From assembly GCA_031972375.1 (NCBI GenBank), contig DALYEU010000017.1, positions 9,476 through 37,255 of the forward strand: a DNA stretch of 27,780 bases, written 5' to 3'. Below the pieces are notes generated by a model. The model was not told where the DNA came from. It did not search any database and worked only from the letters and a program-made list of their open reading frames with translations. Made by a program: the position numbers and the translations under genes. The stretch is from a bacterium. Lineage in GTDB: Bacteria > UBA10199 > DSSB01. Below, piece by piece: positions 4,641-22,842 of the stretch (the stretch's first letter is position 1; every line of letters starts with the position of its first letter).

Positions 4641-4808
4641 CTCTCTCTCCTTCGAGCTACCCATCACTTGAGGATTACCTACCTAAAATTTCTTCCCCCA
4701 GATCTATGGGTTCGGTTTTAAGAGGCTTGCCGGGTTTTTCCAAAACAACTTCTTTTTTTCTGCTTCGATAAGGTTCACCCGTATTTATTTCATGAGTGGA
4801 ACCGGGTG

Positions 4809-7800
4809 ATGTCCTTGAAAATTTTATCGTCTTCACAATTTCAGTTTTTTTCCGACTCAGGCCAATCTGTTTCCAAAACCGTTTCAGGGACTAAGTCCAA
4901 ATCCTCTGCCACCAGCCTATACCGACAGGCCCGTCAGCTAGAGCAAATTCATGATAGGGAAGCGTCTGAAATCATTTATAGAACCTTGATTAAGGATCAT
5001 CCCGATACTCCCCAGGCGGATCGGGCACGCCGTCGCTTGGAGGTGTTGGCGGGTCGTGGGTCTTGGGTAGATCGGGTGGAGCACTCCGTTCCTGTTTTCA
5101 TGACTGAAATGCTCTCTCCTGGTTCGATGGGGCCCATGATGGTGTCTGGTCTGGGATTTCGTCTCACCCGTTTGGGTTTGGGGTCTTGGATGACCCATCG
5201 GGGGTCTTGGTCGAGCATGGTCGGACAATTCGGAGTTCGAGGCTTGTCCTCATTGGGGGCCTTGGGAGCCGAAGGGATGGTGTTTAGTACGGCACACCGC
5301 TTTTCTGCCGCTGCTTTGGGTCAGACGGTCGACTGGAGCGGGTCCGCTTGGCTGAAAGACTGTTCTCATTCGTGGTTGATGATGGGAGGGATGCGATTCG
5401 TTGGAAGCGCGGCTCAAGGGCTCTATAGCCTGGGGCATCGAGTGTCTTCCGTCACTGGAAAAGTGGAGCGCTGGAGCGCTTTAGCTCCCGTAAGTCGTCG
5501 TTTGGCCACTGAAGGCGGCGCTGTGGGGGGGCTGTTGCTTGGCTCTTGGTTGGCGGCGGGAGCTTCTTGGAAAGATTTGGGTGAGTCCCCGCTGCTCCAG
5601 GCTTTAATGACGCATCTGCAATTTAAGATCACAGGTTCTTTGATTCATGAGGTCTTCCCTCGTCTAGGCCAATGGGAATGTATCCTAGAGCGAGGCTTTC
5701 AGCGTTTAGGTGAAAGACCCTTGAGTTCTTGGATGCCGCTGGTGTTCGAACGTTTTTTTTCGGATTTTGCACCCCAATTGTTGCGGCCAGCTTGGCAAGG
5801 GGCCTCGGTAGTACCGGGGCGTGATGGATCGAAGGCTCTGCCTTTGCAGTTGCAAATGGGAGTCCATGGGCCTCAGGCCCGTAGTTCTGGTCAGCGGCCA
5901 CTTTTCAAAGGGCGAGAAATTTCTACGATTGATAAGTTTTTTAACAGCAACATGTTGGAGCGTGGGACCCTGTTTTTAAAGGCGCTCCTTCTTTGGGAGG
6001 GGTTGAGTCCCGTCGAAAGAAAGGTGGATCAGGGGGCTTGGGTACGGATCTATCAACAACAAAGTGCTTCGTGGCGTCGTCGGATTAAAGAAAATTCGCC
6101 CGATGCCTTGTTGCCTTCGCCATTGAGCGAAAAACAGTTGTATGATTTTTTAGATACCTTTTCGGTTCTCTGGAAGGAGAGCGTCGTTTCAGGACAACGC
6201 TCTCCTGTATCTGCTGTTTTTTCTTGGCTAAAACCCCGCGATGCTTTGCTTTGGAAGAATTTTTTTACCACGGTTTTTCTCATCGGTGACAAAGGAAAGG
6301 TTCGCGATTCAAGTGTGCTGCTCCCCTGGATGGTGCAGGGCATGGACAGTCTCGAAGGGCTCCTCTGGGAGTACTTAGACTATCCACAAGTTAAAGAGTC
6401 TCGTCGATTGGAGGTTTTGGCGTTTTTAGAAGCGGAGATGGAATACTTGCCCGTGTCCAAGCGTGGGGAGCGTTTTTATAAAATTCTGCAATGGGCACAG
6501 GGTGCTCAAGACCCTCTTTTGGCCCAAAGGGCTCAGAAAGTGGTAGACCGTTGGGTTTACAAGCTTCCCAAAGAAGATTTGGCTAGAGCCCTGTTTGAGT
6601 TGTCCACCGATTTTGTGCGCTACTACGATCGTAGCCAAGGCAATGTCTCCGGATTGGTTTTGAATTGGGGAACTTTATTAGAGCGTTTAACTGCAACCCC
6701 TCGAAAAGAAGTTGTGTCGCAGGTCGTTAAGTTCTCCCGTGATCCTGATGCTCGGGTTCGAGAAAATGCACGAGTTTGGCTGCGACAAGTTGAAGCATTT
6801 TTTAAAAATAATTCCCAATACAGAACGATGGTCGAGGGTATCAGACAGGAGTTGCTCCGATCCGAAGAGTTAGAGCGGCAAGCCGATTATGTCGCTTTGT
6901 CGCGTTTGGATAAGAAAATGCGGCAATTGATCCCGGTTTCCAGAGCAAGGCGCGGCAGTGGTTTTTCTGAGGATATTGGAAAATTATGGAAGAGCGCATT
7001 GCGGATTCAAGACCCGGCGTTGCTAAGCGATGCCTTAAGGCGGCTTGTTTCGACTTTGCCCTGGTTGACGGCCTCGGAGCGAGTGGCCCATGTAATGCCT
7101 GCTATCGAGTTATATTTTTCATCTCCAAGACAGATGACTTCCCAAAACCAACAATATTTTTATGAGATCAACCGCTCTTGGATGCGGGTGTTTGGCTATT
7201 TTTCTCCCAGGGTGCTCCAGAAAATTTTTAGGAGTATTGAAATAGGCCTAGAGGATGCTCAGCCCGCAAATCAAGCTTTGTGGGAAAGCTGGATACGGGT
7301 TACCGCTTCTGTGGGTTTGGATAGGTTTCCGGAAGAGCTACAGTTGCATCTTTGGTCGTTGGGATCACGGGATCGGGAGACTAGCGAATGGGCTGTGGAT
7401 GGCCTCGTTTCTCTTTATCCACGCTTGCAACCAAAATATAAAATCGATTTTTGGCGTTATGTGAGTCGTGGTTCTTTTCCCGAGGCCCCACATTTTTTTG
7501 AGAGCTATTTTTCCACCTTATACTCTCGAGGTATCGAGCCTCTTTTAGTGTCGACCGATGGACAATGGTTACGGCCTATTCTGTGGAAGCTCTGGCAAGT
7601 TTTTCCGCACGGAAAGGTTTCTTCACCCCCCACAGATTGGAAAGCAGTTTTATTGGGCGGTAAAAAGTCAGGCCTCACTAAGGCGCAACTGGAAAAGCTC
7701 GATCAATTTTTGAAAATATTACATGACGAAGCCCAAGGCCCAGAATTGGAAGCTTCGCGTCGTGTTTTGCAAGGTTTGTGGGAGGAGGTCCGACGCCAAC

Positions 7801-7811
7801 AGTCGGAATAG
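4809..7811 (+). CDS. Large (1000 aa) hypothetical protein of unknown function. It has an N-terminal TPR-like helix pair, a Gly/Ser/Trp/Met-rich low-complexity region, and a long Trp-rich predicted alpha-helical body with at least one HEAT/PBS-like repeat
   Basis: Uninterrupted 3-kb ORF on the same strand and immediately downstream of the HK-RR pair. First ATG at 4809 (track starts at GTG 4806). No catalytic or nucleotide-binding motif was recognised. RDPDARVRENARVWL resembles a HEAT-like repeat. Degenerate GSW-containing repeats occur across aa ~95-260. Confidence 0.75.
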   Translation: MSLKILSSSQFQFFSDSGQSVSKTVSGTKSKSSATSLYRQARQLEQIHDREASEIIYRTLIKDHPDTPQADRARRRLEVLAGRGSWVDRVEHSVPVFMTEMLSPGSMGPMMVSGLGFRLTRLGLGSWMTHRGSWSSMVGQFGVRGLSSLGALGAEGMVFSTAHRFSAAALGQTVDWSGSAWLKDCSHSWLMMGGMRFVGSAAQGLYSLGHRVSSVTGKVERWSALAPVSRRLATEGGAVGGLLLGSWLAAGASWKDLGESPLLQALMTHLQFKITGSLIHEVFPRLGQWECILERGFQRLGERPLSSWMPLVFERFFSDFAPQLLRPAWQGASVVPGRDGSKALPLQLQMGVHGPQARSSGQRPLFKGREISTIDKFFNSNMLERGTLFLKALLLWEGLSPVERKVDQGAWVRIYQQQSASWRRRIKENSPDALLPSPLSEKQLYDFLDTFSVLWKESVVSGQRSPVSAVFSWLKPRDALLWKNFFTTVFLIGDKGKVRDSSVLLPWMVQGMDSLEGLLWEYLDYPQVKESRRLEVLAFLEAEMEYLPVSKRGERFYKILQWAQGAQDPLLAQRAQKVVDRWVYKLPKEDLARALFELSTDFVRYYDRSQGNVSGLVLNWGTLLERLTATPRKEVVSQVVKFSRDPDARVRENARVWLRQVEAFFKNNSQYRTMVEGIRQELLRSEELERQADYVALSRLDKKMRQLIPVSRARRGSGFSEDIGKLWKSALRIQDPALLSDALRRLVSTLPWLTASERVAHVMPAIELYFSSPRQMTSQNQQYFYEINRSWMRVFGYFSPRVLQKIFRSIEIGLEDAQPANQALWESWIRVTASVGLDRFPEELQLHLWSLGSRDRETSEWAVDGLVSLYPRLQPKYKIDFWRYVSRGSFPEAPHFFESYFSTLYSRGIEPLLVSTDGQWLRPILWKLWQVFPHGKVSSPPTDWKAVLLGGKKSGLTKAQLEKLDQFLKILHDEAQGPELEASRRVLQGLWEEVRRQQSE

Positions 7812-9198: not shown

Positions 9199-9792
9199 TT
9201 AGCCCTTGAAATAAGGATTGGTGCCCGAAGCGTGGTCGGTTTCATCGACGACCCCGGTAAGTTGAGGGAAGGCTTGTTTTAAGCGGGTTTCGATGCCCTG
9301 TTTCACTGTGGCATCGATCATGGAGCAGCCCTGGCATCCTCCCCCAAATTTCAGATAAACCTTGTTATTCAATACATTCAGTAGTTCGGCTCGTCCGCCG
9401 TGCATGGCGAGTCCAGGATTGATTTCTTTTTCGAGAAGTTCTTTTACTTGGGACACCAAGGGATTGCTCGCGTCTAGGGGGGGTGGTTCTACTGCCGCTT
9501 GAAATTCGAAGGAGCCGCTGAGTAAGCCTCCAGCTTTGAAGTCGAGGGTTCCGGCGTTAAGGAGTTTTTGTCCCTCTTGATCAACGATGACCATAAAACG
9601 TTCGTACTCGACAAAAAAGCCGGTGCGTTTGTCCCGCAGGGGATTTTCTTCGGGAGCCAGTTGGGTCAGATCGATCATGCTAACTTCGATTTGATTGCCC
9701 AGGACTTTGAATTTGACCCCATGGGTGTTGGAGTTTTGTCCGACAAGTAGCTTGGCAAGTTGGTTCTGAGCGTTTTCTGTAAAACGAATCAT
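9199..9792 (-). CDS. nfuA: Fe-S biogenesis protein NfuA (degenerate A-type domain plus a C-terminal Nfu domain with CxxC)
   Basis: Start re-set to MIRFTENAQNQLAKLL, as in E. coli NfuA (MIRISDAAQAHFAKLL); SD AAAGGG 6 nt upstream. The C-terminal LAMHGGRAELLNV...KFGGGCQGCSMIDATVKQGIE matches E. coli LAGHGGRVSLMEI...[21 protein letters not shown]. The track's start at 9819 is a TTG. Confidence 0.8.
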   Translation of the reverse strand: MIRFTENAQNQLAKLLVGQNSNTHGVKFKVLGNQIEVSMIDLTQLAPEENPLRDKRTGFFVEYERFMVIVDQEGQKLLNAGTLDFKAGGLLSGSFEFQAAVEPPPLDASNPLVSQVKELLEKEINPGLAMHGGRAELLNVLNNKVYLKFGGGCQGCSMIDATVKQGIETRLKQAFPQLTGVVDETDHASGTNPYFKG

Positions 9793-9939
9793 GGGCATCC
9801 CTTTGGGTATCTTATACAATGACTCACAAACTTTTTATTTGCTCTGGCAGAATCCTCGAGTCTTTTCAAGATGACAATCGGTTTTCATCACTCGAGGGTA
9901 TGCTTGCAGGGTAACGATTTCAATCTCAGGAGAATGGCC

Positions 9940-11313
9940 ATGTTTTTTGATATCGTCAATCCTACCACTGGAGAAAAACTTAAGAGCTACGCGGCGCTGT
10001 CTTTGGCTCAAGTCCATGACATTCTCGACAGCGTCCATGACACTCAACAACGCTGGAAGCAAGTGGCGATTTCCGAGCGCGTCCCCGCAATGTTGAGGCT
10101 TTCTCAGTTATTGCGGGAGAAAAAAGACGAATATGCCCGGCTTATGGCGGTGGAGATGGGGAAGGTGTTGGCCCAGGGGGTGGGCGAGATCGAAAAATGC
10201 GCTTGGGTTTGTGAATTTTATGCCAAGAATGCGGAGCAGTTTTTGGCCCCCGAGCCTGTACTGACCGAAGCGAAGAAGAGTTTTGTTAATTTTTGCCCTC
10301 TGGGAACTCTGTTGGCCATCATGCCGTGGAATTATCCCTTTTGGCAGGTGTTTCGCTTCGCGGTGCCCGCTTTAATGGCAGGAAATGGAGTTGTTCTTAA
10401 GCATGCTCCCAACGTGTTTGGAACCGCTTTGGCTATCGAGTCCTTGTTTCGTGAGGCTGGTTTTCCTCCCCAACTGTTTCGTTCTCTATTGATCGATGTG
10501 CCCCATACCACCGAGGTCATTCACGATCCCAGAATTGCGGCGGTGACCCTGACGTCTAGTGTGGAGGCGGGGCGCGCCATCGCTACGGAGGCGGGAAGGG
10601 CGTTGAAAAAATGTGTGCTTGAATTGGGAGGCTCCGATCCTTTCATCGTATTGGCCGATGCCGATGTGGATCGCGCTGTCGAAGTGGGGGTCATGGCTCG
10701 ATTTCAAAACAGTGGACAAAGCTGTATCGCCGCCAAGCGGTTTATTTTGGTGCCCGAAGTGAAAGAGGCTTTCGAGAAAAAGTTTGTGGAGCGCGCTCGG
10801 TCTCTCAGAATGGGAAATCCTTTAGATTCTAAGGTCGACATGGGGCCTATGGCGCGCTTTGATTTGCGAGACGCCTTGCATGCTCAAGTGGAGCGTACTT
10901 TGGAGGGCGGGGCTCAGTTGTTATTGGGCGGCGTGATTCCTGACCAGCCGGGGGCCTTCTATGGTCCCACTGTTTTGAGTGGAGTCAAATCGGGCATGGT
11001 GGCCTGGCACGAAGAGCTGTTTGGTCCCGTGGCTACGATGATTGCCGTGGCTCACGAAGAAGAGGCCATTGAGGTTGCGAACGCCACGTCTTTTGGTTTG
11101 GGGGCTTCGATTTGGACCCGGGATCTGAAACGTGGTGAGCGTATTGCCGCGGAGCGCATTGATTCAGGGAGTTGTTTCGTCAACGCTATGACCAAATCGG
11201 ATCCACGTTTGCCTTTTGGTGGGATCAAACATTCAGGTTATGGCCGCGAACTCTCCCAGTTTGGTATCCGTGAATTCGTTAACGTGCATTCGGTTTGGAT
11301 TCAAGAAAGTTAA
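9940..11313 (+). CDS. yneI: NAD(P)+-dependent succinate-semialdehyde dehydrogenase, YneI/Sad type (aldehyde dehydrogenase superfamily)
   Basis: [55 protein letters not shown] and [11 protein letters not shown] are near-identical to the E. coli YneI blocks [55 protein letters not shown] and TGQVCAAAKRF. SD AGGAGA 9928-9933 with a 6-nt spacer to ATG 9940. The track's start at 9871 is an upstream extension. Confidence 0.8.
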   Translation: [457 protein letters not shown]

Positions 11314-11328
11314 AAAATTTTGATTCCA

Positions 11329-11344
11329 CCAGATTTTTATCTGG
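11329..11344 (+). terminator. Small hairpin CCAGAT-TTTT-ATCTGG, 16 nt after the yneI stop. Possible weak terminator
   Basis: Perfect 6-bp stem with a 4-nt loop, read directly from the sequence. No T-tract follows. Confidence 0.2.
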
Positions 11345-11509
11345 CGCCGTTTCGGCCCTCTGATTATCCGGTAAGTTTTCGTTCTGTTTTTGAAAGTGTC
11401 GAAATGCCCCACCGTTTTTATGGCCTCATTTTTTAATTTGAGACTTTAAGACTTTTCGACTGTTTTCTCTTTTTAGTCTGCGTTGAAGGCCACTGGTTTT
11501 GAGAGAGGA

Positions 11510-12019
11510 TTAAATCCCGAGAATTTGTACGACCGCCTGACGGGTGCGTGGACCATCGAGGTCGATGAGGCAAAGACGCTGCCAGCGACCCCATACGGGT
11601 TGGCCATCTCTTACCAAAACAGTTTGTGAAGGGCCCCCGAACAAGAAGGCCTTCATATGGGCATCGGCATTGGTATCGCACTTGTGGTCGTCTTCGCAGA
11701 GGTTCTTCGTGCGCAGACCGCTATTGTGGAGATAGGACATCTTCTTAGGAATAAAATCTCGCAAGGCTTTATTGATATCGCCCAGTAGGCAGGGTTCGTC
11801 GAGTTCGTTCACACTAACGATACAAGTGGTGTGAAGGGCTTGGAGAGTCAGAAGACCATTTTGGATGCCGCTTTCCTTGACCCATTCGTAAGAAGTCTCG
11901 GTAAAATCGGTGATCGAGAAAAAATCGAAATCACCCACATGATTTAGAAGCTTGGGTTCTAGGTTGAGTAAATTGTTCTGGTCTGTTTGTATTTCGAGTT
12001 GTTTGTACCAGGTTTTCAT
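11510..12019 (-). CDS. YjbQ/UPF0047 family protein (secondary thiamine-phosphate synthase-like)
   Basis: LHTTCIVSVNELDEP and HMKAFLFGGPSQTVLVRDGQPVWGRWQRLCLIDLDGPRTRQAVVQILG match UPF0047 blocks (HTSASLTINEN...; HIKSSLLGSSLTIPV..G.L.LGTWQGIYL.EHRD....R.LVVTL). Confidence 0.75.
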   Translation of the reverse strand: MKTWYKQLEIQTDQNNLLNLEPKLLNHVGDFDFFSITDFTETSYEWVKESGIQNGLLTLQALHTTCIVSVNELDEPCLLGDINKALRDFIPKKMSYLHNSGLRTKNLCEDDHKCDTNADAHMKAFLFGGPSQTVLVRDGQPVWGRWQRLCLIDLDGPRTRQAVVQILGI

Positions 12020-12164
12020 AGTTTTTCCTTTTTGTCCTAACCGGATCCTGCGCCTATTTTGATGCGATTCGTGAGAGAGGGTTGCAAGTTAGAGCGAGGC
12101 GTTCGGGATTTTTGAATTTATTTTTTATGTGGTTTTGGGTTTGTCGTGTCTGCCGTAAATTTTA

Positions 12165-12584
12165 TTAAGGCAAATTGAGTTGTAGCTTTGCGGCCTCGCT
12201 CATTTTTTCGGCTGACCACGGGGGATCCCAGGTCAACTCAACCTTGGCGGAGAGCACGCCCTCAACACTCCGTACTTTTTGTTCCACTTCGCCGGGGAGA
12301 GACTCGGCCACGGGACACATGGGGCTGGTAAGGGTCATGAGAATATTTACCTCGTTTTTTTCAGAAAGGGTGATCTGATAGATCAGGCCCAGTTCGTAGA
12401 TATTCACCGGGATTTCTGGATCGTAGCAGGTTTTGAGCGCCGCGACCACCTTTGCTTCCAAGTCATGGTCTTTGCCATGGAAGGTTTCTTGTTCTGCTGT
12501 GGTTGTGGGAGTTTCTGATGTCGTTTTCATAAACGAGGCATGGGGGTCGTGGATGGCGGCTTTGTTAGCAAAGTAATCATTCAT
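12165..12584 (-). CDS. sufT: SufT-like DUF59 (MIP18 family) Fe-S assembly protein, last gene of the suf operon
   Basis: CYDPEIPVNIYELGLIY...LTSPMCPVAESL is the DUF59 core. SD GAGGAA 5 nt upstream. Its ATG overlaps the sufU stop (ATGA). Confidence 0.7.
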   Translation of the reverse strand: MNDYFANKAAIHDPHASFMKTTSETPTTTAEQETFHGKDHDLEAKVVAALKTCYDPEIPVNIYELGLIYQITLSEKNEVNILMTLTSPMCPVAESLPGEVEQKVRSVEGVLSAKVELTWDPPWSAEKMSEAAKLQLNLP

Positions 12585-13048
12585 GGAAGTTCCTCAGCCT
12601 CTGTGGAAATTACTTCGTCCCGTCCTTCGAGGGCACTATTGAGCGTATGCCAGGCTAGGCTGGCGCATTTTACCCTGGAAGGAAACTCGCAAACACCGGC
12701 AAAGACGGCGAGTTTTCCCAGGTCAGGATCGGCGGGACTCCCTGGAGAGCCGGTGACCATTTTATGAAATTTTTTAAAAAGGGATTGAGCTTCTTCTAGG
12801 GTCTTCCCTTTCAATCCTTCTGTCATGAGCGAAGCCGAGGCTTTGGAAATAGCGCAGCCATTTCCTTCGAAACTCAGCTGGACGATGCGGTCACCCTCCA
12901 GATGCAAATACACTGTGAGATGGTCGCCGCAAAGCGGGTTATAGCCCTCGGCGTGACGATTGGCTTCCTCCATTCGGTGGAAGTTTCGTGGGCGTTTGTT
13001 GTGATCGAGAATCACCTCTTGGTAGAGTTCACGAAGTTCGGAAGACAT
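12581..13048 (-). CDS. sufU: SufU-type (zinc-dependent) sulfur-transfer / Fe-S scaffold-like protein
   Basis: NPLCGDHLTVYL, GNGCAISKASASLM and PSRVKCASLAWHTL are the three Cys-containing blocks of SufU/IscU-like proteins. 155 aa. 1-nt overlap with the sufS stop. Confidence 0.8.
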   Translation of the reverse strand: MSSELRELYQEVILDHNKRPRNFHRMEEANRHAEGYNPLCGDHLTVYLHLEGDRIVQLSFEGNGCAISKASASLMTEGLKGKTLEEAQSLFKKFHKMVTGSPGSPADPDLGKLAVFAGVCEFPSRVKCASLAWHTLNSALEGRDEVISTEAEELP

Positions 13049-14319
13049 TAGGCGAAGACCTCCTTAGCTTTGTGTAGGGCCAACACCAAGGCATCGATTT
13101 CTTCCCGGGTATTGTAAAAGCTCATAGAAGCACGGGCGGTGGCGGGTAATCCGTAGCGTAACATGAGGGGCATGGTGCAGTGATGTCCGGTACGAATGGC
13201 GATACCCCTGGCGTCCAGCAGGGTTCCTAAGTCGTGGGGATGGATATCTTCCATGACGAAGGAAATGACACTCGCTTTTTGCGTAGCCTGACCGATGATT
13301 TTCAGTCCGGGAATTTCACTTAGGACTTGGGTTCCGTATTGAAGCAAATCGTCTTCATGGCGCTGCACTAGGGACCAGTCTAAAGTTTGTAGATAGTCAA
13401 TGGCGGCCCCCAATCCAATGGCTCCGGCGATGTGGGGTGTGCCTGCTTCGAATTTATAGGGAAGACTGTTGTAAGTGGTCTTTTCAAAGGTGACTTGGCG
13501 AATCATGTCACCCCCACCTTGATAAGGGCTCATGATTTCGAGCAGCTTTTCTTTTCCGTAGAGGACGCCGATCCCCGTGGGGCCGAATAATTTATGTCCG
13601 GAAAAGGCGTAAAAATCCACATCGAGAGCTTGGACGTCTACTTGCAGGTGGGGAATGGCCTGTGCTCCATCAAGCAGTACGGGAATCCCGCGAGCATGGG
13701 CTTTAGCGATGATAGTTTCGACGGGATTGAGGGTTCCAAGAGCGTTGGAGATATGTACGATGGAAACCAGCTTTGTTTTTTCGCTGAGGAGTTTTTCAAA
13801 GGACTCTAAATCGAGTTCTCCCGAATCGGAAATGGGAACCACCTTGAGTTCGATGCCAATCTGATCGCGTAGCAATTGCCAGGGGACGATGTTGGAGTGA
13901 TGCTCCATGTGGCTAATAATAACTTCGTCGCCCCGTTGCCAAGAACTTCGGCCCAAGGATTGGGCCACCAGATTGATGGCTTCCGTAGTGCCTCGGCAAA
14001 AGAGAATTTCCCGGGCATGGGCCGCGTTGAGAAATTTTTGAATTTTGATTCGAGCTGCTTCGTATTGCTCGGTGGCTCTCTCACTCAATAGGTGTACGCC
14101 GCGATGGATGTTGGCGTTATCTTCTCTGTAATAGTGATCGAGGGCTTCGATGACTTGCCGAGGTTTTTGCGCAGTGGCCGCGTTGTCTAAATACACCAGA
14201 GGGAAGCCGCGCACATTTTGGTGTAGGATGGGAAAATCCTCCCGTAGCCGTTCTATCGAAAAGCTCGAAGCGTTAGCCGAGTCTGCCCGGAGTGGAGTCT
14301 TGCTCAGAGTGGCACTCAT
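13048..14319 (-). CDS. sufS: Cysteine desulfurase SufS (group II)
   Basis: PLP-lysine block [17 protein letters not shown] and active-site Cys block [11 protein letters not shown] (SufS RxGHHC). 423 aa. Its ATG overlaps the sufD stop (ATGA). Confidence 0.9.
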
Positions 14320-15644
14320 AAAAACTTTTCTCCCTCCACCGAAAGTTCGGCGATCTTCAATCGGTTCAGCAAGCTGCGTTCTAGCTGTTGCTTTAATTCG
14401 ATTTCGCTCATGTTTTGCAACACTTCACTCGCGAAGGCGTAAGTAAGCAAGTGGCGAGCCAAGGCCTCGTCGATACCTCGGGAACGCAAGTAAAACACCT
14501 GGGTTTCATCAAGTCGTCCAATGGTTGCTCCATGGGAACAACGTACATCGTTGGCAAAAATTTCCAAGAGGGGTTTGGTGTCGACTACAGCATCTCGTGA
14601 GAGCAGTAGATTTTTATTACTCAAGGAGGACTGGGTTTTTTGTGCATGGGGCTGGACTAGGATCTGTCCGTTAAAAATCCCATGGGATTTTTCATCGAGG
14701 ATTCCTTTGTAGAGTTCTTGGCTCGTGCATTGGGGTACGGCGTGACGGATCAGGGTTTGATTGTCGAGATGTTGTTGTCCGTGTCCTAGGTAGAGACCGG
14801 TGAGTTGACAATGGGCTCCGGGTTCTCCCAGATGGGAGCGTATTTCTGTGCGGGCCCATTGTGCGCCGAGATTCAGGTTGAAGGAATGAAATTGGGAGTC
14901 CCTATTTTGTTTTACGTAGAGCCCCCCCAGGTGAAAGGCGCGTTCGTCTTCTTCTTGGATACGATAATGACTCAATTGCGATCCCGACTCAGTGATGATT
15001 TCGGTCAAGGCGTTGGTGAAGTAGGGATGTTGCGAGCGTTTTCCCGAGTAGTTTTCCACCACCACGCCTTGGGCTTGGGCCTGGGCTACGATGAGCGTGC
15101 GAGGGTGGCTCGCTGTGGCGGCTTCATCGGAGAGTGATAAATAAAGTAATTCGAGAGGTTTTCCTAAAACAGCCCCCGGTGCGAGGTGGACGAAGGCCCC
15201 ATCTTGTAAAAAGGCCGTATTTAGGGCGCTGAAGGTCTCCTCTTGCCAAGGCGCGATGCTTCCCAGATAGGGACGGATTTTTTCATCATGACTGGTGAAG
15301 GCCATTTTTAAGGGCAGTATCGTGACGCCTTGGGGTAAATCCTCGAGTCGGGAAAATTCTTGGGCGAAGTGTCCGTTGATGAAGGTGATCCGATAGTTTT
15401 TCTTAGAACCGATATTCAAGCAGTTGAGCGGATCGTAATTACGATGCTTGGGTTGATAGTCCTCGCTTGCTTGAAAAGCAGTATCGAGGAGTGGGCGCAC
15501 CGAGGTGTATTTCCAGTTTTCTTGTTGAGCGCTAGGGTAGCCCAAGGACTGAAACTGTTGGAATCCCTGTTTGCGAATTTCCTGCAACCAAGCTGGGCCC
15601 TTCGCATCGGTTTGGCGGTAGTGTTGTAGAAATTGGTCTTCCAT
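14316..15644 (-). CDS. sufD: Fe-S cluster assembly protein SufD
   Basis: SufB/SufD-family beta-helix body lacking the SufB Cys motifs. Start re-set to ATG 15644..15642 (MEDQFLQ...), which has SD GGGAG 6 nt upstream and lies 1 nt after the sufC stop. The track's 15770 extension runs back into sufC. Confidence 0.8.
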
Positions 15645-15645
15645 C

Positions 15646-16407
15646 TTAGGCTCCCGTTGCTTCCTGGGTAACCCAGGCATAACCTTTTTCTTCCAAGTGG
15701 AAGGCGAGGTCTTTATCTCCCGAGTGCACAATTTTTCCGTCTTGAAGCACATGAACATAATCGGGAACAATATAATTGAGCAGTCGTTGGTAGTGGGTGA
15801 CCACGATCATGGAGCGCCCCGGATTGCGCAAGGAGTTGACTCCGTCGGCCACGATCTTAAGGGAGTCGATGTCTAGGCCCGAGTCGGTCTCGTCGAGTAG
15901 GCATAGGGTGGGTTCGAGTAAAGTCATCTGTAAAATTTCGTTACGCTTTTTTTCTCCACCCGAGAAACCCTCGTTCACATTGCGCTTGAGATATTTGTCA
16001 TCCATTTTGAGCAATTGCATTTTGGCCTTAATCAGGGTGAGAAAATCTATGGCGTCTAGTTCTTCTAGTCCACGAGCCTTACGTTGGGCGTTAAGAGCCG
16101 TTTTGAGGAAGTAGGTGTTTCCCACACCGGGGATTTCCAGGGGATATTGAAAGGCAAGGAAGATGCCGGCGTGAGAACGTTCTTCGGGGGAAAGGTCCAA
16201 GAGATTTTTGCCCTGATAAATAATTTCCCCTTCGGTGATTTCATAATCTTCTCGCCCGGCCAAAATGGAAGACAGGGTGCTTTTTCCCGAACCATTAGGA
16301 CCCATGATGGCGTGGATTTCTCCGGGTTCCACTTTCAAATCGATGCCTTTGAGAATGGGTTTTCCATCCACACGGGCGTGCAGATTTTTAATTTCTAGGA
16401 GACTCAT
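15646..16407 (-). CDS. sufC: Fe-S cluster assembly ATPase SufC
   Basis: Walker A GPNGSGKST, ABC signature FSGGEKKRNEILQ, Walker B LCLLDETDSGLD; 253 aa, a typical SufC. Confidence 0.9.
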   Translation of the reverse strand: MSLLEIKNLHARVDGKPILKGIDLKVEPGEIHAIMGPNGSGKSTLSSILAGREDYEITEGEIIYQGKNLLDLSPEERSHAGIFLAFQYPLEIPGVGNTYFLKTALNAQRKARGLEELDAIDFLTLIKAKMQLLKMDDKYLKRNVNEGFSGGEKKRNEILQMTLLEPTLCLLDETDSGLDIDSLKIVADGVNSLRNPGRSMIVVTHYQRLLNYIVPDYVHVLQDGKIVHSGDKDLAFHLEEKGYAWVTQEATGA

Positions 16408-16452
16408 GCTGTTTTATCCTTTCAAGATTTTGTCCATGGCTCAGGGAAAATG

Positions 16453-17901
16453 TCAGCCCACCGATCCTTCTAAACTCACTCCAAGAAGTTTTTGGGCTTC
16501 GACGGCAAATTCCATGGGAAGCTCGCGAAAGACCTCGCGGCAGAAACCATTGACGATCATGTTAACGGCGTCTTCTTCGGAAATTCCCCTTTGTTTGCAG
16601 TAAAATAACTGGTCTTCTCCGATTTTGGAGGTAGTCGCTTCGTGCTCCATTTGGGCTGAATGATTTTTAATTTCTAAATACGGAAAGGTATGGGCTCCGC
16701 ATTCATCCCCCATCAATAGGGAGTCGCATTGGGAGTAATTGCGGGCATTCTCGGCGTTTTTCATGATCTTGACTTGGCCGCGGTAGGTGTTTTGACTTTT
16801 TCCCGCCGATATTCCCTTGGAGATAATGGTGCTTCGGGTGTTTTTTCCAAGATGGATCATTTTGGTTCCCGTATCCGCTTGCTGATAATTGTTGGTGACC
16901 GCAACCGAATAGAATTCTCCAATGGAGTAGTCTCCAGCCAAGACACAGCTGGGATATTTCCAAGTGATGGCGGAACCCGTTTCCACTTGAGTCCACGAAA
17001 TTTTAGAATGATGCCCTTTGCAAAGACCTCGCTTGGTGACGAAGTTATAGATGCCACCTTTGCCTTCTTTGTCGCCTGGATACCAATTTTGCACGGTGGA
17101 GTATTTGATTTCGGCTTTATCTAAAGCCACTAATTCTACGACCGCCGCGTGCAGTTGGTTTTCGTCTCGCATGGGGGCCGTGCAACCTTCCAGGTAAGAG
17201 ACGTAACTCGCTTCATCGGCTACGATTAAGGTGCGTTCGAATTGCCCGGTTTGAGCGGCGTTAATGCGAAAGTAGGTGCTTAATTCCATGGGGCAGCGGA
17301 CGCCCTTGGGAATATAGGCGAAGGATCCGTCGGTGAAGACTGCTGAGTTAAGTGTGGCAAAGAAATTGTCAGTGTAAGGGACTACCGATCCTAAATATTT
17401 TTTCACCAGTTCGGGATGTTCTTGTACGGCTTCGGAGAAAGAACAAAAAATGATTCCTAGTTCGGCGAGTTTTTCCTTAAAGGTGGTTCCCACGGAAACG
17501 CTGTCGAAAACTGCGTCGACGGCCACATTGCTAAGGCGTTTTTGTTCTTCCAGGGAAATACCCAATTTGTTGAATGTCTCCAAAATCTCGGGATCCACTT
17601 CGTCGAGGCTGTTAAGTTGTTTTTTCTTTTTAGGAGCCGAATAGTAATAGCTGTCCTGATAGTCGATGGGGGGGTATTGAACCTTGGCCCATTGGGGCTC
17701 TTTCAGGGTCAACCAATGTCGATAAGCTTTTAGGCGCCATTCTAATAGCCACTCAGGTTCGTTTTTTTTCTGAGAGATGATGCGGACAATATCCTCGCTC
17801 AAGCCTTTGGGAATGGTCTCCGTTTCAACGGATGTGACGAAGCCATATTGATATTCTTTGGAGGTTAATTCTTGGACAGCTGAATTATTTTGTTGGGTCA
17901 T
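16453..17901 (-). CDS. sufB: Fe-S cluster assembly protein SufB
   Basis: Blocks conserved throughout SufB: [23 protein letters not shown]..., [16 protein letters not shown]. Start re-set to ATG 17901..17899, which has SD AAGGAGAG and overlaps the rrf2 stop (ATGA). The track's upstream extension to 18057 overlaps rrf2. Confidence 0.9.
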
Positions 17902-18350
17902 GGTGCTCTCCTTTCTGAGAGGAAGTTTCCGGGTGCCAGGTCGGCTACCGTTGTCTCCGCCAAAAGATGGTAGATCCTCATGTTGAGTTCGGAGAGGGGG
18001 GTTTTGATTCGACAATCGTCCCATTGCGGACAGGTAATTTTTTCTTCCTTTAAACATTCGGTGACCGCCAGGGGACCCTCAAAAATTTCGGCCACGTCGG
18101 CTACGGTAATGGTTTCAGGGGACTTTGCCAGACGGTAACCGCCCTTGGTGCCGTGGACGGCCTTGATAAGACCTTTACTCGCCAGTTGCTGGAGTACTTT
18201 GGCCAAAAGGGGTTGGGGAATATGGTAGGCTTCGGAGATTTCCCGGGTGCTGGTGAGTAAATTCGAGGGGATAAAGTTGTTTTCACCCTTGCGCAACATA
18301 TGCTCGATGGCGATGAGAGCGTATTCAGTTTTTCGATTAAAATGCAGCAT
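17898..18350 (-). CDS. Rrf2-family transcriptional regulator with a three-Cys cluster (IscR/SufR-like putative [Fe-S] sensor), first gene of the suf operon
   Basis: N-terminal wHTH typical of Rrf2 ([19 protein letters not shown]...). The C-terminal [15 protein letters not shown] has three Cys positioned as the cluster ligands of IscR/NsrR-type regulators. Confidence 0.8.
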
Positions 18351-18360
18351 AAGTAATTTT

Positions 18361-18380
18361 TAGACTTTTCTAGTCGTATA
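18361..18380. promoter_or_regulatory. Candidate Rrf2 operator: TAGACTTTTCTAGTCGTATA containing a GACT-N5-AGTC palindrome, 11-30 nt upstream of the rrf2 start. The 10-mer TAGTCGTATA recurs inverted at 18457-18466 and as a 9-mer at 18496-18504
   Basis: Read directly from the sequence. GACT/AGTC half-sites with 5-nt spacing resemble, from memory, the E. coli IscR type-1 site core (GACTrwwwyAGTC). There are three copies within 150 bp of the operon's control region. Confidence 0.4.
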
Positions 18381-18400
18381 AAAACCAAAAATAAAAAACA

Positions 18401-18440
18401 AAAAAACCTTTAAATATTATGGTTTTTTAGTTTTTTTTCT
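18401..18440. terminator. AT-rich hairpin AAAAAACC-N12-GGTTTTTT flanked by T-runs on both strands. Possible bidirectional terminator (encapsulin operon 3' end), or an A-tract/UP-like element of the rrf2-suf promoter
   Basis: Stem 18401-18408/18421-18428 (only 2 GC pairs), followed by TTTTTTAGTTTTTTTT on the plus strand and TTTGTTTTTTATTTTTGGTTTTT on the minus strand. Confidence 0.3.
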
Positions 18441-18633
18441 CCCTAAGAATCTTAAATATACGACTATCATGGTCTTGTATAAGGCGCAACGGGCGAGTCG
18501 TATAGGGAATTTTTAAATAAATGTAAAGGTGCATTCTCGAGGTGTTTGTGGCGCGAATCGCCAGAGCTGGAGGCAAGACGGCACACACCCATATTACCGG
18601 GGGGAGGGGAATATGGTGGGGCGAAATTTGAGT

Positions 18634-19446
18634 TTAGGGGGCGGAGTGTAGCAGGGGTACTGCGGCTTGGGGGCTCAAATTTTGGAAAGTGAGACTTTCT
18701 TCCAGGTACAGCGTTACCTCTGTTTCGTTGTGATGAAGGTAGCCCACTGAAAAATCTTGACCTACGGTCAACTGAAAATCCCCACCGCGTAAACTCAAAA
18801 CGATGGCGCCTTTGAGGGCTGGGGCCCACACGATAGGGCCTTCGAGTTCTCGTTTGACGTGTTGTAGGATGGGGTAGCCCCCTTTGGAAGTGGTCTGAGA
18901 GAGTCCTTGGTAGCATTGAGGGCCCAAGGCGATGGCATAGGGCCCTTCGATACCATGGCTTCGCAAGAGGTTAGTGGCTTCGGCGACCAGGCGGGGATAT
19001 TTTTCATAGTCGTCGGAAATCTTAAGAGACTGCTTTTTGGCTGCTGTGAAAATTCCCTCAATGCCTGCCTCGGAGTTTCCCTGAAAGATAAGTTGGTCTT
19101 CTGTGAGCGCGGCGCGTTGAGCTGCCTGAACGACGGCATCAAGGTTGGGATTGGCGCAAGCTCGGTCGATGGCTTCAAGCTCGACGAGTTTTAGGGTGAA
19201 AGGAACGCGAATTTCTACGAGTGGTTGCACTTGGCGGATTCCAAGCTCCACTCCGGAGCTTGAGTTTTTTCCTAATTTTTCCACTCGCCCCAAGGGAATG
19301 GAACCGAAGGCCCAACCATGGGGTCCTGAAAAATCGACGAGGCGACGCCCAGCCAGGCCTAATTTAAGGGTCCGGGTGGCTTCTTGAGAGAGGGCGTTCC
19401 AGGCTTCGGTCGATAGGGGAGCGAGGTGGCGTTTTAAATGGCTCAT
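18634..19446 (-). CDS. Family-1 encapsulin nanocompartment shell protein (Linocin M18 / HK97-fold)
   Basis: 270 aa, alignable end to end with T. maritima and M. tuberculosis (Cfp29) encapsulins. MSHLKRHLAPLSTEAWNALSQEATRTLKLGLAGRRLVDFSGPHGWAFGSIPLGRV matches MNNLYRDLAPVTEAAWAEIELEAARTFKRHIAGRRVVDVSDPGG. LRGGDFQLTVGQDFSVGYLHHNETEVTLYLEESLTFQ matches TRGGDFDLQLGTDVAIGYASHDTDTVRLYLQETLTF. Its ATG overlaps the stop of the upstream cargo gene. Confidence 0.85.
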   Translation of the reverse strand: MSHLKRHLAPLSTEAWNALSQEATRTLKLGLAGRRLVDFSGPHGWAFGSIPLGRVEKLGKNSSSGVELGIRQVQPLVEIRVPFTLKLVELEAIDRACANPNLDAVVQAAQRAALTEDQLIFQGNSEAGIEGIFTAAKKQSLKISDDYEKYPRLVAEATNLLRSHGIEGPYAIALGPQCYQGLSQTTSKGGYPILQHVKRELEGPIVWAPALKGAIVLSLRGGDFQLTVGQDFSVGYLHHNETEVTLYLEESLTFQNLSPQAAVPLLHSAP

Positions 19447-19829
19447 GATTTAAGGTCTCCTTTGAGGCTACCGATCTTGAGGGATTCATCGTGGCTCTGT
19501 GTTTTGTCGGGGGCATCGTTTACTGAGGAGTTTCCTTCTAAGGAAAGCAGGTCTCCTTCAGTAAAGAGATAGGTGCGTAGTTGCTCATCCAGTTGGGGGT
19601 CGCGACGCCGCAACCATTCTAAGGTGATGGCGGCGTGCTCTTTTTCTTCGTCGCGGTTATGTTGCAGGATGGCCCGCAATTCTGCATCTTCGGTGGCATC
19701 GGCTCGCTGATCGTACCAGTCGGCGGCCTCGAGTTCTTCGATGATGGAAATATAAGCTCGATGGCGCTCGATGGTTTCAGGCTTGAGCTTTTCTTTTTCT
19801 TCGTGAAGTCCCATGCTGGCACCGCTCAT
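19443..19829 (-). CDS. Encapsulated ferritin-like protein (EncFtn) cargo with a C-terminal encapsulin targeting peptide
   Basis: HRAYISIIEELEAADWYDQRADATEDAELRAILQHNRDEEKEHAAITLEWLRRRD matches the EncFtn core (EExxH iron site; from memory very close to R. rubrum EncFtn). The C-terminal ...DESLKIGSLKGDLKS fits the family-1 cargo-loading peptide (..SLxIGSLKG..). True start is ATG 19829 with SD GAGGAG 6 nt upstream; the track's 19856 start is a GTG inside a palindrome. Confidence 0.8.
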   Translation of the reverse strand: MSGASMGLHEEKEKLKPETIERHRAYISIIEELEAADWYDQRADATEDAELRAILQHNRDEEKEHAAITLEWLRRRDPQLDEQLRTYLFTEGDLLSLEGNSSVNDAPDKTQSHDESLKIGSLKGDLKS

Positions 19830-19846
19830 GTTTTGCTCCTCATTGG

Positions 19847-19856
19847 GTGATATCAC
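19847..19856. promoter_or_regulatory. Perfect 10-bp palindrome GTGATATCAC just upstream of the EncFtn SD, next to an AT-rich stretch (GATGGATATTATTG). Candidate operator
   Basis: Read directly from the sequence, at -18 to -27 relative to the EncFtn ATG. Confidence 0.3.
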
Positions 19857-20055
19857 TTGATGGATATTATTGTGTGGTTTGGGAATTAGAGCAGGGAAGC
19901 GAATTATTCTTCAAGAAAAAATCCAAGTTTGATTTTATGAGGCCATGGGAGAAGTGAATGCTTTGGAGATGGCAATAGGGAGAGAGTTCAATGGATTGCT
20001 TCCCACAAATCCCTGTTGTTAATTTCATGGGTTAGGAAAAAATAAGGCCTTGTTC

Positions 20056-20919
20056 ATGCAAAAAAAGATTCTTACTCTCAACGGTTTGAAGCACCGTTAC
20101 TTTTTTTGGGGTTCCGCCAAGAATCCTCCTTTATTTTTAGTTCACGGTTGGTTGGATACGGGAGCGGCCTTTCATTTTCTCTGCAGATATTTAGAGAAAA
20201 AATATTTTTGTGTAGCTCCCGATTTGCGCGGTTATGGCAAAAGTCAGCATAATGCCAGCCCATTGGGTTATTTTTTTTATGAATATGTAGCCGACGTGGC
20301 GGCCGGTTTAGATCGCTTATTCCCTGGTCAGGCGGTTCATTTATTGGGGCACAGCTTGGGCGGGGCCATTCTTTCGGCGTACGCCGGTAGTTTTCCTGAG
20401 CGAGTGAAAAGTTTTGTCAATTTGGAGGGCTTTTTATTCAGGTCTCGCTCTAAGTTGGATCCAGCGCAGCGCTTGCGCCTGTGGTGGGAGGACTTAGATA
20501 AAAATCGATTTCGGGTATTTCGGGATCGGGATGCCTTTGCCCAACGTTTGCTCCAAAATTTTCCAAAATTAAGCTTGTCACAGGCGAAATTTTTAACACG
20601 GTATTTGACAGAGCCTGTGAAAGGGGGGGTACGCATGGCCGCTGATCCTCGGCATAAAACGCCGGAGCCTTATCCTTTTCATAAGAATAGTTTCGTTCCT
20701 TTTTGGCGAAGGATTCTCGCCCCCAGTCTTTTTGTGGTGGGAGAAAAAACCGAGTTTTCGGGTAATCGCCCCCGAAGTTTTTTTAGGCGTTTAGAATCAC
20801 GGTGTAAGGATTTTCCACCCCAGACGCGTTTTTACGTTTTGCCTGATGCGAGACATGGCATGCACTTGGAGAATGTGGAGGTTTTGGCTCCACTGTTGGG
20901 AGAGTTTTTTCCGAAATAG
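20056..20919 (+). CDS. Alpha/beta-hydrolase fold protein (esterase/lipase-like)
   Basis: HGW oxyanion region (LFLVHGWLDTG), nucleophile elbow GHSLGG, and a C-terminal DARHGMHLE providing the His of the triad. Start re-set to ATG 20056; the track's 20050 is a TTG. Confidence 0.75.
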   Translation: MQKKILTLNGLKHRYFFWGSAKNPPLFLVHGWLDTGAAFHFLCRYLEKKYFCVAPDLRGYGKSQHNASPLGYFFYEYVADVAAGLDRLFPGQAVHLLGHSLGGAILSAYAGSFPERVKSFVNLEGFLFRSRSKLDPAQRLRLWWEDLDKNRFRVFRDRDAFAQRLLQNFPKLSLSQAKFLTRYLTEPVKGGVRMAADPRHKTPEPYPFHKNSFVPFWRRILAPSLFVVGEKTEFSGNRPRSFFRRLESRCKDFPPQTRFYVLPDARHGMHLENVEVLAPLLGEFFPK

Positions 20920-21208
20920 GTCTGGTGAGTTTAAAAAATGCGATGGATTGAAGTTTAAGCAGATTGAAAATTTCTGGGTCGGTTTTAGAATCGTGGTTCG
21001 TGCTTGTTATTTTATTGAAATGGGATTTTGTTGGGGTGAGTTGTTAAACAGAAAATAAAATAGATTCGTTGCGATAGACACTTTAAGATTTTTTCGGGCT
21101 GTGGATGCTTTTGAAAGCGCCGAATCAAAACAATGGATATTGATCTTGGTAGTGCCACTTCGTGCCAAGTGCAGTCTATGAAACCAGACTCATAGATCAG
21201 GACTATTT

Positions 21209-22711
21209 TTGGATACGCTATTCCACTTTTTTCACCACTTTCATTATTACCTGTTCCTATGGGACCGTTTCGTTATTCCGCCCATTTTGCTTTTAGGGAT
21301 GGTGGCTGGCATCTGTGCGGCTTTTCACGCCCTTTTGCAAAAGCGCGATCCACGCTCCGCGTTGGGATGGACTGCGGTATGTCTTTTTTTTCCGGGGGTG
21401 GGGGCACTGCTTTATCTACTTTTTGGTATCAATCGCATTCGTGCTCGCGCTCAGGATTGGCATGCTCAAGGTCGTTGGGAAATTTCTTCCCGTCTCAAGC
21501 CTACGGCCGGTCATTGGGATTGGAAACGGCATTCTTCGACAGACCATTTGGCAGCTTTTTTTTCTCTGGTCAGAGTCTCGGAAGCGGTGAGTGGCCTTCC
21601 CTTGGTGGAGGGGTGTCGAATTGCTCCGTTGTTCAATGGAGAAGAGGCTTATCCCCCCATGCTTAGGGCTATTGCCAATGCCAAACGCAGGGTTTTTTTG
21701 AGCACTTACATTTTTGAGAGCAATGAATTGGGAAAAAAATTTGTGGAGGCTTTGGGGGAGGCTCGGGATCGTGGTGTCGATGTCCGAGTGTTAGTGGATG
21801 GAGCGGGCACCCATTATTCCCGTCCTCGTATTCAAAAATGGCTCAAACGACGTGGTATTCCCCATAGGCTTTTTTTACCCCTTACCCTCTCCCCCCGCAG
21901 TGTTCATCTCAATTTACGCACCCATCGCAAACTGCTCATCATCGACGGTGAATTGGGTTTTACAGGAGGCATGAATATTGGCGGTCGCCATTGTGTGGAA
22001 GATCCAAAAAATAATAACCCTACTCAGGATATTCATTTTCAGGTTGAGGGGCCTGTCCTAGCTCAGTTGCAAGAGGCTTTTTTGATGGACTGGTCTTTTG
22101 CTCAGGGTCACGAACCTGAGTCTGTGGAGATGGATTTGTCTTGTAGCGAGGTCCCTAAGGGCAAGGCCATGGCCCGTGGTATTATCGCTGGGCCCAATGA
22201 GGATTTCGAAAAACTTCGTTGGATCGTCAACGCCTCCATCACTTGTGCGCAGCGAAAAATTCGCATCATGACGCCCTATTTTATTCCCGATGGAGAAATG
22301 ACAGCGGCCTTGGCCACGGCAGCCTTGAGGGGGGTGGAGGTTGAAATCATTTTGCCGGAGAAAAATAATCTCCCCTACGTGAAGTGGGCGTCCCAGGCCT
22401 TATTCGAAGAGCTTTTGCATTTTGGAATCAAAATTTATTACCAGCCGCCTCCCTTCGCCCATTCCAAATTTATGGTCATTGACGATTTTTTTTCTTTGAT
22501 CGGTTCGGCCAATTTAGATCCGAGAAGTTTGATTTTGAATTTTGAGTTCAACCTAGAGGTTTATGACTGGGATTTGGCTCAGCGTTTGATGGAGCACTTT
22601 GACCGGGTGAGGCTCGATTCCAAAATCATCACGGCAACCTATTTGCAGTCTAGGCCCTTTTACAAAAAAGTCAGGGATTCCCTGTGTAAGCTCTTTTCTC
22701 CCTACCTTTAG
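21209..22711 (+). CDS. cls: Cardiolipin synthase / phospholipase-D superfamily protein (two HKD motifs, N-terminal TM helices)
   Basis: HKD-1 HRKLLIIDGELGFTGGMNIG and HKD-2 HSKFMVIDDFFSLIGSANLD. The N-terminal TM pair, with ALGWTAVCLFFPGVGALLYLLFG, is as in ClsA. Start is uncertain: 21209 is a TTG, the first in-frame ATG is at aa 31, and AGGA lies 6 nt before the TTG. Confidence 0.75.
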   Translation: MDTLFHFFHHFHYYLFLWDRFVIPPILLLGMVAGICAAFHALLQKRDPRSALGWTAVCLFFPGVGALLYLLFGINRIRARAQDWHAQGRWEISSRLKPTAGHWDWKRHSSTDHLAAFFSLVRVSEAVSGLPLVEGCRIAPLFNGEEAYPPMLRAIANAKRRVFLSTYIFESNELGKKFVEALGEARDRGVDVRVLVDGAGTHYSRPRIQKWLKRRGIPHRLFLPLTLSPRSVHLNLRTHRKLLIIDGELGFTGGMNIGGRHCVEDPKNNNPTQDIHFQVEGPVLAQLQEAFLMDWSFAQGHEPESVEMDLSCSEVPKGKAMARGIIAGPNEDFEKLRWIVNASITCAQRKIRIMTPYFIPDGEMTAALATAALRGVEVEIILPEKNNLPYVKWASQALFEELLHFGIKIYYQPPPFAHSKFMVIDDFFSLIGSANLDPRSLILNFEFNLEVYDWDLAQRLMEHFDRVRLDSKIITATYLQSRPFYKKVRDSLCKLFSPYL

Positions 22712-22842
22712 AAGAGAGTAGGCCTTATCCGTGTTTGCGAAAAAGCTTGAGGCTAGGGGTTGCCTTTCTGAGAAGGCCAGGGTAGGCCAGCTCCGCCGGA
22801 TTTTGACCGGGTGTTCATTCCAAAACTTAAGGTGAGGCTTTT

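Follow-up and report, generated by a model that had tools for sequence, protein, structure and literature searches.

An encapsulated-ferritin operon next to an rrf2-sufBCDSUT operon, in a chromosomal slot held by a ferritin-like gene in related bacteria

The encapsulated ferritins (EncFtn) of Rhodospirillum rubrum and Haliangium ochraceum are family-1 Flp-type systems in which an encapsulin shell and its cargo form a T=1 iron store (PDB 5da5, 7odw and 9ry4), with both components encoded in a two-gene operon in which the cargo comes first. Family-2A encapsulins package a cysteine desulfurase. Iron-sulfur (Fe-S) regulators of the Rrf2 family, such as IscR with its type-1 sites, RirA and the Xanthomonas-type regulators of model TIGR02944, have a winged-helix Rrf2 fold with three cysteine ligands and are encoded by the first gene of the operon that they presumably repress. 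We analyzed a stretch of 27,780 nucleotides (the 27.8-kb window) from a bacterium of GTDB lineage UBA10199; DSSB01 (assembly GCA_031972375.1, contig DALYEU010000017.1, positions 9,476 to 37,255), in which an EncFtn-encapsulin (EncFtn-Enc) gene pair lies directly upstream of, and in the same orientation as, an rrf2-sufBCDSUT operon. All components of this locus are members of known families. The original prediction had interpreted their juxtaposition as a coordinated iron-release and Fe-S-repair module. We consider it likely that the locus is instead composed of two autonomous and known transcription units placed head-to-tail, whose adjacency was inherited from a ferritin that the encapsulin genes displaced.

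An encapsulin gene pair and an rrf2-suf operon on the same strand

All coordinates refer to positions within the window, and the EncFtn, Rrf2 and Suf genes lie on its minus strand. The map of open reading frames (ORFs), together with curated family models, confirmed the predicted order EncFtn, encapsulin, spacer and rrf2-sufB-sufC-sufD-sufS-sufU-sufT (Table 1). By reading the junctions directly, we found all the expected ATGA overlaps (rrf2/sufB, sufD/sufS and sufU/sufT), the 1-nt overlap between sufS and sufU and the 1-nt gap between sufC and sufD. We also detected an ATGA overlap of 4 nt between EncFtn and Enc, which was missing from the earlier list, and a 45-nt gap between sufB and sufC. 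Both the physical link between encapsulin and suf and the tight translational coupling among the suf genes are confirmed. The region between the encapsulin gene and rrf2, previously estimated at around 290 bp, measures 283 bp (18351-18633). L001 and L002, two near-identical contigs obtained from independent samples, show the same EncFtn-Enc-rrf2 order.

EncFtn matches the curated models TIGR04535 (130 bits, cut-off 125) and PF22277 (126.7 bits, cut-off 27), and aligns to the R. rubrum protein 5da5 with E = 4e-37. In this alignment the ferroxidase-centre region EEKEH (ExxH) is identical to the 5da5 chain, and the C-terminal targeting peptide SLKIGSLKGD aligns to SLGIGSLKGE of the full-length R. 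rubrum cargo, which is a known localization sequence. We discarded the GTG at 19856, annotated earlier as the start of EncFtn, in favor of the ATG at 19829, which is the likelier start because it is kept in the sister species together with its Shine-Dalgarno sequence and because the PDB alignment begins there. The shell protein matches NF041155 with 306.8 bits (cut-off 100) and the HK97-fold family PF04454 (Linocin_M18) over its full length (model positions 1-253 of 253). Its top PDB matches are the type-1 shells 9ry4 and 7odw (E = 1e-79), and it is only around 60% identical to its nearest database relatives. Similarly to the R. rubrum and H. ochraceum systems, the window thus has a two-gene operon that starts with the cargo, an EncFtn core with a C-terminal SLxIGSLKG peptide, and a shell of approximately 270 residues that aligns end to end. 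It differs in its context beside rrf2-suf, which is unique among the loci sampled. The pair is a standard family-1 Flp/EncFtn system, predicted from these matches to assemble a shell and to store iron mineral: the EncFtn ferroxidase cargo would oxidize Fe(II), and the mineral would be kept inside the shell.

We assigned the suf genes to a single SUF operon since all components score above their equivalog cut-offs (Table 1) and are separated by overlaps or by gaps of 45 nt at most. This operon is a standard SufBCD-SufSU-SufT system, and its gene order is kept in about 20 related loci. The proximity of an encapsulin gene to a SufS-type cysteine desulfurase recalls the family-2A encapsulins; however, the window shell belongs to family 1 and SufS is part of a normal sufBCDSUT operon. 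The best NCBIfam score of the window SufS is to the 2A cargo model NF041166, with the catalytic part only. We rejected its assignment as a 2A cargo desulfurase, because the score of 649 bits is below the cut-off of 800 and the match is limited to model positions 217-623, which means that SufS has no N-terminal cargo-loading domain. When found beside an encapsulin, such a best score could mislead automated annotation.

The regulator encoded by rrf2 matches the Rrf2 superfamily model TIGR00738 (100 bits, cut-off 73.3) and falls below the cut-offs of the specific equivalogs RirA (78.8 bits against 193), TIGR02944 (79.2 against 110.65) and IscR (57.1 against 207.55). Residues C99, C107 and C113 are invariant across 33 Rrf2 orthologs. 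From the three invariant cysteines and the low equivalog scores, we therefore predict an Fe-S-type Rrf2 regulator of a distinct clade, which is not equivalent to RirA, IscR or the TIGR02944 proteins. It resembles them in the winged-helix fold, the three cysteine ligands and the position as first gene of the operon that it presumably represses; the C-X7-C-X5-C spacing also resembles that of RirA. Unlike the described regulators, this clade is found in uncultured bacteria that NCBI labels as 'bacterium' or 'Deltaproteobacteria bacterium'. In every related locus whose available sequence runs past rrf2, the next gene is sufB.

Control regions of the two units

A metagenome scan for relatives of Rrf2 returned 25 loci, two of which were spurious (L117 and L118). 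We aligned the region upstream of rrf2 from six lineages, namely the window species, its sister species and the outgroups L090, L119, L120 and L121. The alignment is composed of a -35 element TTTACA, a diverged 17-nt spacer, a -10 element TATAC(N), a first predicted operator (O1), an AT-rich stretch of variable sequence and a second predicted operator (O2). The two hexamers and the distance between them are kept in all six lineages, while the sequences that separate them have diverged. The operator consensus TATAnGACY-N5-RGTCnTATA recurs upstream of rrf2 across the clade (25 related loci compared), and it occurs in the 27.8-kb window only at O1 and O2, against a chance expectation of 0.08. The proposed control of suf by Rrf2 is therefore plausible, as the palindrome precedes rrf2 throughout the clade and both matches in the window lie there. 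The operator core GACY-N5-RGTC resembles the IscR type-1 consensus ATASYYGACTRWWWYAGTCRRSTAT (PMC6599224), from which the window operators differ in their shorter flanks (TATA-n-GACY). The 9-mer TATACGACT, which forms one half of O2, has three copies in the window, all inside the spacer. We rejected the third copy (18496-18504) as an operator half-site, since it coincides with the conserved -10 element in the six-lineage alignment. We also dropped as a weak terminator an AT-rich inverted repeat at 18393-18436, which is not conserved in the sister species. This 16-nt repeat, which is 94% complementary and precedes a T-rich run, is located between O1 and O2 in the predicted suf leader.

The spacer is thus predicted to be a self-contained promoter and operator unit of suf, kept also in relatives that have no encapsulin upstream. 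The putative promoter, 106 bp downstream of the encapsulin stop, would drive an autoregulated rrf2-sufBCDSUT operon. The three-cysteine, Fe-S-sensing Rrf2 would bind one operator shortly after the predicted start site (near 18492) and the other just before the rrf2 ATG, and would set the expression of SUF according to the Fe-S status of the cell.

The encapsulin operon is expected to have a promoter of its own, with a predicted transcription start near 19878. The 220-bp region upstream of EncFtn is shared divergently with a hydrolase gene, and the alignment with the corresponding contig of the sister species (L051) shows that TTGAAG-N18-TCTAAT, the Shine-Dalgarno sequence and the ATG at 19829 are kept, while the sequence between them has diverged. 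By searching with the consensus, we found no Rrf2 palindrome or half-site upstream of EncFtn, and no Rrf2 operator upstream of nfuA, yjbQ or the aldehyde dehydrogenase (ALDH) gene of the window. A different palindrome just upstream of EncFtn, GTGATATCAC, was considered as a regulator site and dropped because the sister species has not kept it.

These control regions bear directly on the original prediction, according to which encapsulin and SUF form a module co-regulated by Rrf2 from a shared control region and kept together by selection. The two units are indeed co-oriented and only 283 bp apart. However, the suf operators come after the encapsulin genes, so that they cannot control the initiation of the encapsulin operon; likewise, the supposedly shared region is located downstream of the encapsulin genes and holds what appears to be the suf unit alone. 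A regulator site common to both units is not supported either, as EncFtn is preceded by its own -35/-10 footprint and by no match to the operator.

The slot upstream of rrf2 in related genomes

We measured how often the adjacency occurs elsewhere, starting from the encapsulins. By scanning one genome for each GTDB species, we identified 80 EncFtn-encapsulin loci, one of which belongs to the sister species. EncFtn is directly upstream of the shell gene in all of the 79 loci from other species. None of these 79 has a match to Rrf2, SufB, SufD, SufS, SufU, SufT, NfuA or YjbQ (tblastn, E = 1e-3; 1.15 Mb of flanking sequence), and 66 of them have at least 2 kb of sequence downstream. No suf genes are found in the context of a shell that is 60% identical to that of the window (L006). 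The neighbors in this locus are genes of sulfur amino-acid metabolism and not of SUF, with a Cys/Met PLP enzyme two genes upstream of EncFtn and a cysteine-synthase-like PALP gene directly downstream of the shell (L006:4419-8279). In 4 of the 79 loci, an ALDH gene lies directly upstream of EncFtn (Table 1); the encoded proteins are 34-54% identical to the window ALDH, which may be a recurring neighbor. A census of encapsulin neighborhoods published in 2021 names no SUF association for Flp systems, and PF01458 appears only 4 times in the part of its neighbor table that was covered. At the level of titles and abstracts, the literature returned no link between encapsulins and a suf operon or SufB.

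The comparison from the side of rrf2 gave the same picture. No EncFtn, shell or ferritin is present upstream of rrf2 in about 20 further loci of the clade (Rrf2 54-72% identical), and one locus of the same clade (L091) has neither ferritin nor encapsulin in the slot. Among related rrf2-suf loci, the adjacency is seen only in the contigs of this species. The conservation in related genomes expected under a functional module is therefore not observed.

The suf contig of the sister species (GCA_031972915.1; L005) shares approximately 82% DNA identity with the window from 18535 down through nfuA and beyond. The blastn homology stops at 18535, 8 bp upstream of the suf -35 element. Upstream of its rrf2 there is no encapsulin and instead a divergent ORF of at least 698 amino acids on the opposite strand (L005:2-2095, minus), with no Pfam or NCBIfam match. 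The separate contig L051 carries the EncFtn of this species (90% identical to that of the window) and its shell, which is 76% identical and breaks off at residue 191. From the 698-aa ORF and the separate contigs we infer that in the sister species an opposite-strand gene stands between the encapsulin and rrf2, or that the two are unlinked. The identity of the sister shell (L051:5542-6114, 191 residues compared) is low with respect to EncFtn and to the acyl-CoA dehydrogenase of the same contig (94%), which may reflect faster evolution or the poor quality of the contig end.

The four outgroups, whose Rrf2 is 75-76% identical to that of the window, have a different pair of genes directly upstream of rrf2. 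These are MscS and a 138-aa ferritin-like protein, encoded on the opposite strand. The ferritin-like proteins match PF00210 with 58-62 bits in the three loci scanned (L090, L120 and L121), and in the PDB the L090 protein gives its best matches to a DPS-like protein and to bacterioferritins. In the two contigs that reach further (L090 and L121), the same hydrolase gene that flanks EncFtn in the window is found beyond ferritin and MscS, followed in L090 by the cardiolipin synthase and acyl-CoA dehydrogenase genes. In the sister species, too, the block of these three genes (20050-24603 in the window) flanks EncFtn-Enc. The slot between hydrolase and rrf2 is thus occupied by ferritin and MscS in the outgroups and by EncFtn and shell in the window. 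Regarding the broader iron and Fe-S neighborhood of the original prediction, an iron-storage gene does lie beside rrf2-suf across a family-level clade, but the gene found there in the four nearest outgroups encodes a ferritin-like protein and not an encapsulin.

To polarize this change, we relied on a bootstrapped neighbor-joining tree of Rrf2 and SufB. The six lineages form a clade with 96% bootstrap support. The window and sister species group together in 100% of the replicates and are nested inside the ferritin-bearing lineages, which are monophyletic in only 2% of the replicates; L090 is sister to the window and sister species in 61%. Parsimony on this tree favors ferritin-MscS as the ancestral content of the slot, later displaced in situ. 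Since the four nearest outgroups carry a ferritin in the slot, an iron-storage gene beside suf appears older than the encapsulin. Since they carry ferritin-MscS in the same slot, the encapsulin would have inherited the place of the ferritin beside suf rather than being recruited to SUF. The exchange of a four-helix Bfr/Dps-like ferritin for EncFtn and a shell, in the same slot and between the same flanking genes, resembles a non-orthologous (analogous) gene displacement in situ. It departs from this model in that the orientation is reversed and MscS was lost with the ferritin, and its direction, which we infer, relies on a two-protein neighbor-joining tree with moderate support.

The outgroups further share a third palindrome, GGACCnAAnGAGTC ('site 0'), fixed 9 nt upstream of the suf -35 element and found in neither the window nor the sister species. 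The homology of these two species to the outgroups ends exactly at this site, and the loss of 'site 0' therefore appears to mark the right-hand edge of the rearrangement. Because of its fixed distance of 9 nt from the -35 element, 'site 0' would seem to serve the suf promoter, and the regulation of suf may differ in the encapsulin-bearing lineage. The module hypothesis could draw on this palindrome, which lies in the intergenic region that the ferritin-side operon of the outgroups shares with rrf2, and also on the presence of an iron-storage gene, either ferritin or EncFtn, in the slot of six related lineages. Yet the palindrome probably belongs to the suf promoter and is gone in the window, the adjacency is missing from all other EncFtn loci, from all other suf loci of the clade and from the sister species, and in the latter an opposite-strand gene precedes rrf2. 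Taken together with the position of the operators, these observations make a co-regulated module very improbable.

The variable content of the slot could also be explained by chance, with ferritin-MscS, EncFtn-Enc and the 698-aa ORF as independent arrivals in a recombination-prone slot and the iron theme as a coincidence. Close relatives do differ in what the slot contains, and L091 has no iron-storage gene of either type there. In addition, L090 has a Y1-type transposase and a hypothetical gene between cardiolipin synthase and acyl-CoA dehydrogenase (L090:1659-2396), so that the block near the slot is subject to insertions. However, we observed no sign of mobile insertion around the EncFtn-Enc cassette, as there is no tRNA, Rfam element, flanking repeat or anomaly in GC or GC3, and the tree favors ferritin-MscS as the ancestral state. 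Iron-storage genes number roughly a few per few thousand genes, and two unrelated iron-storage systems are improbable at one slot by chance. This explanation is in our opinion quite unlikely. A search for ferritin or MscS pseudogenes in the window retrieved no remnants (tblastn, E = 1e-3).

Several points weigh against two autonomous units and an inherited adjacency. In the sister species, whose two contigs are DALYDW010000146 and DALYDW010000015, the encapsulin contig ends inside the shell gene and the suf contig starts inside the 698-aa ORF, so that the two loci could be only a few kb apart. Two independent insertions into one slot are possible, given the moderate support (61%) for L090 as the sister lineage. 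The positions of the promoters and the binding of Rrf2 are computational predictions. Moreover, the minus strand has no terminator-like site in the stretch that separates the encapsulin stop from the suf -35 element (18633-18528), and read-through co-transcription from encapsulin into suf may occur. Lastly, the occurrence of two unrelated iron-storage systems in one suf-adjacent slot is non-random and could reflect selection for the position or a weak functional tie.

The missing terminator, which also speaks for the module discussed above, would allow a passive form of coupling. The two units would respond to separate regulators, and transcripts from the EncFtn promoter would read through the 106 bp into rrf2-suf, where no hairpin is followed by a U-tract. 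SUF would in this way gain an input independent of Rrf2 each time the iron store is expressed, which could compensate for the lost upstream operator, as 'site 0' disappeared exactly at the boundary of the rearrangement. On the other hand, the encapsulin stop is followed by a moderately stable hairpin (z = -2.3), occupation of O1 and O2 by Rrf2 would block read-through, and the arrangement is confined to one species and so has no comparative support. We regard passive coupling as unlikely, although it is compatible with two autonomous units. Selection may instead act on the suf-adjacent position itself, first for the ferritin and then for the EncFtn-encapsulin, because stored iron feeds SUF, with read-through coupling their expression in the window lineage. 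This scenario, which we judge rather unlikely, would, if true, be a natural case in which the iron store of a family-1 encapsulin is tied to the assembly of Fe-S clusters.

Under the preferred reading, two autonomous units with an inherited adjacency, EncFtn-Enc would have replaced the resident Bfr/Dps-like ferritin and MscS in the common ancestor of the window and sister species. Such a displacement would not need the suf-adjacent position to be functional, since the deletion of a ferritin would survive better if the same event brought its replacement.

Neighboring genes and significance of the locus

Downstream of suf, yjbQ and an NfuA-like gene are present as proposed, but a plus-strand ALDH gene lies between them, and the order of the three genes is also kept in the sister species. 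The label nfuA holds only in part: the protein is NfuA-like and scores below the equivalog cut-off (130 bits against 269). The identity of fumC at the other end of the window is confirmed (TIGR00979, 783 bits, cut-off 665), although this gene is 17 kb away and separated by unrelated two-component genes. Another ORF of the window (4806-7811, plus strand, 1001 aa) has no Pfam or NCBIfam match, and the sister species has a 1066-aa gene at the syntenic position.

Table 1. Features of the locus and of the related loci compared with it (window positions unless a locus is named)
Feature	Position	Strand	Remarks
fumC, class II fumarase	436-1839		TIGR00979
NfuA-like gene	9199-9795	-	
ALDH	9871-11313	+	
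yjbQ	11510-12019	-	YjbQ above model cut-off
sufT	12165-12584	-	148.6 bits, cut-off 143.4
sufU	12581-13048	-	158 bits, cut-off 92.5
sufS	13048-14319	-	601 bits, cut-off 475
sufD	14316-15644	-	267 bits, cut-off 222
sufC	15646-16407	-	370 bits, cut-off 213
sufB	16453-17901	-	939 bits, cut-off 717
rrf2	17898-18350	-	150 aa; C99-X7-C107-X5-C113
Predicted Rrf2 operator O2	18358-18380	-	TATACGACT-AGAAA-AGTCTAAAA; 8-30 nt upstream of rrf2 ATG
Predicted Rrf2 operator O1	18457-18479	-	TACAAGACC-ATGAT-AGTCGTATA; one mismatch to clade consensus
Candidate suf promoter	18499-18527	-	TTTACA (18527-18522), 17-nt spacer, TATACG (18504-18499)
Stretch between encapsulin stop and suf -35	18528-18633	-	106 bp; no homolog in suf contig of sister species
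Hairpin	within 18528-18633		CACCAUAUU...AAUAUGGGUG; no U-tract; fold z-score -2.3
Family-1 encapsulin shell	18634-19446	-	270 aa
EncFtn	19443-19829	-	128 aa from ATG 19829; longer GTG ORF to 19856
Candidate EncFtn-Enc promoter	19885-19914	-	TTGAAG (19914-19909), 18-nt spacer, TCTAAT (19890-19885)
Alpha/beta hydrolase	20050-20919	+	Left-hand block; divergent from EncFtn
Cardiolipin synthase	21209-22711	+	Left-hand block
Acyl-CoA dehydrogenase	22843-24603	+	Left-hand block
'Site 0' of outgroups	L090:7800-7812, L119:1783-1795, L120:1958-1970, L121:2327-2339		Compare window 18528-18560
ALDH upstream of EncFtn in other loci	L031:8330-9565, L063:8190-9554, L071:3738-5153, L088:3321-4685		

The locus falls short of establishing a new encapsulin-SUF system. 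It offers a clean natural example in which an encapsulated ferritin probably took the chromosomal place of a conventional ferritin-like gene, which fits the current view of EncFtn-encapsulins as functional equivalents of ferritins. It also reveals a previously undescribed Rrf2 clade that heads sufBCDSUT in uncultured bacteria and has a clear predicted operator consensus. Neither result is surprising to specialists, and both are useful for genome annotation and for the prediction of regulons.

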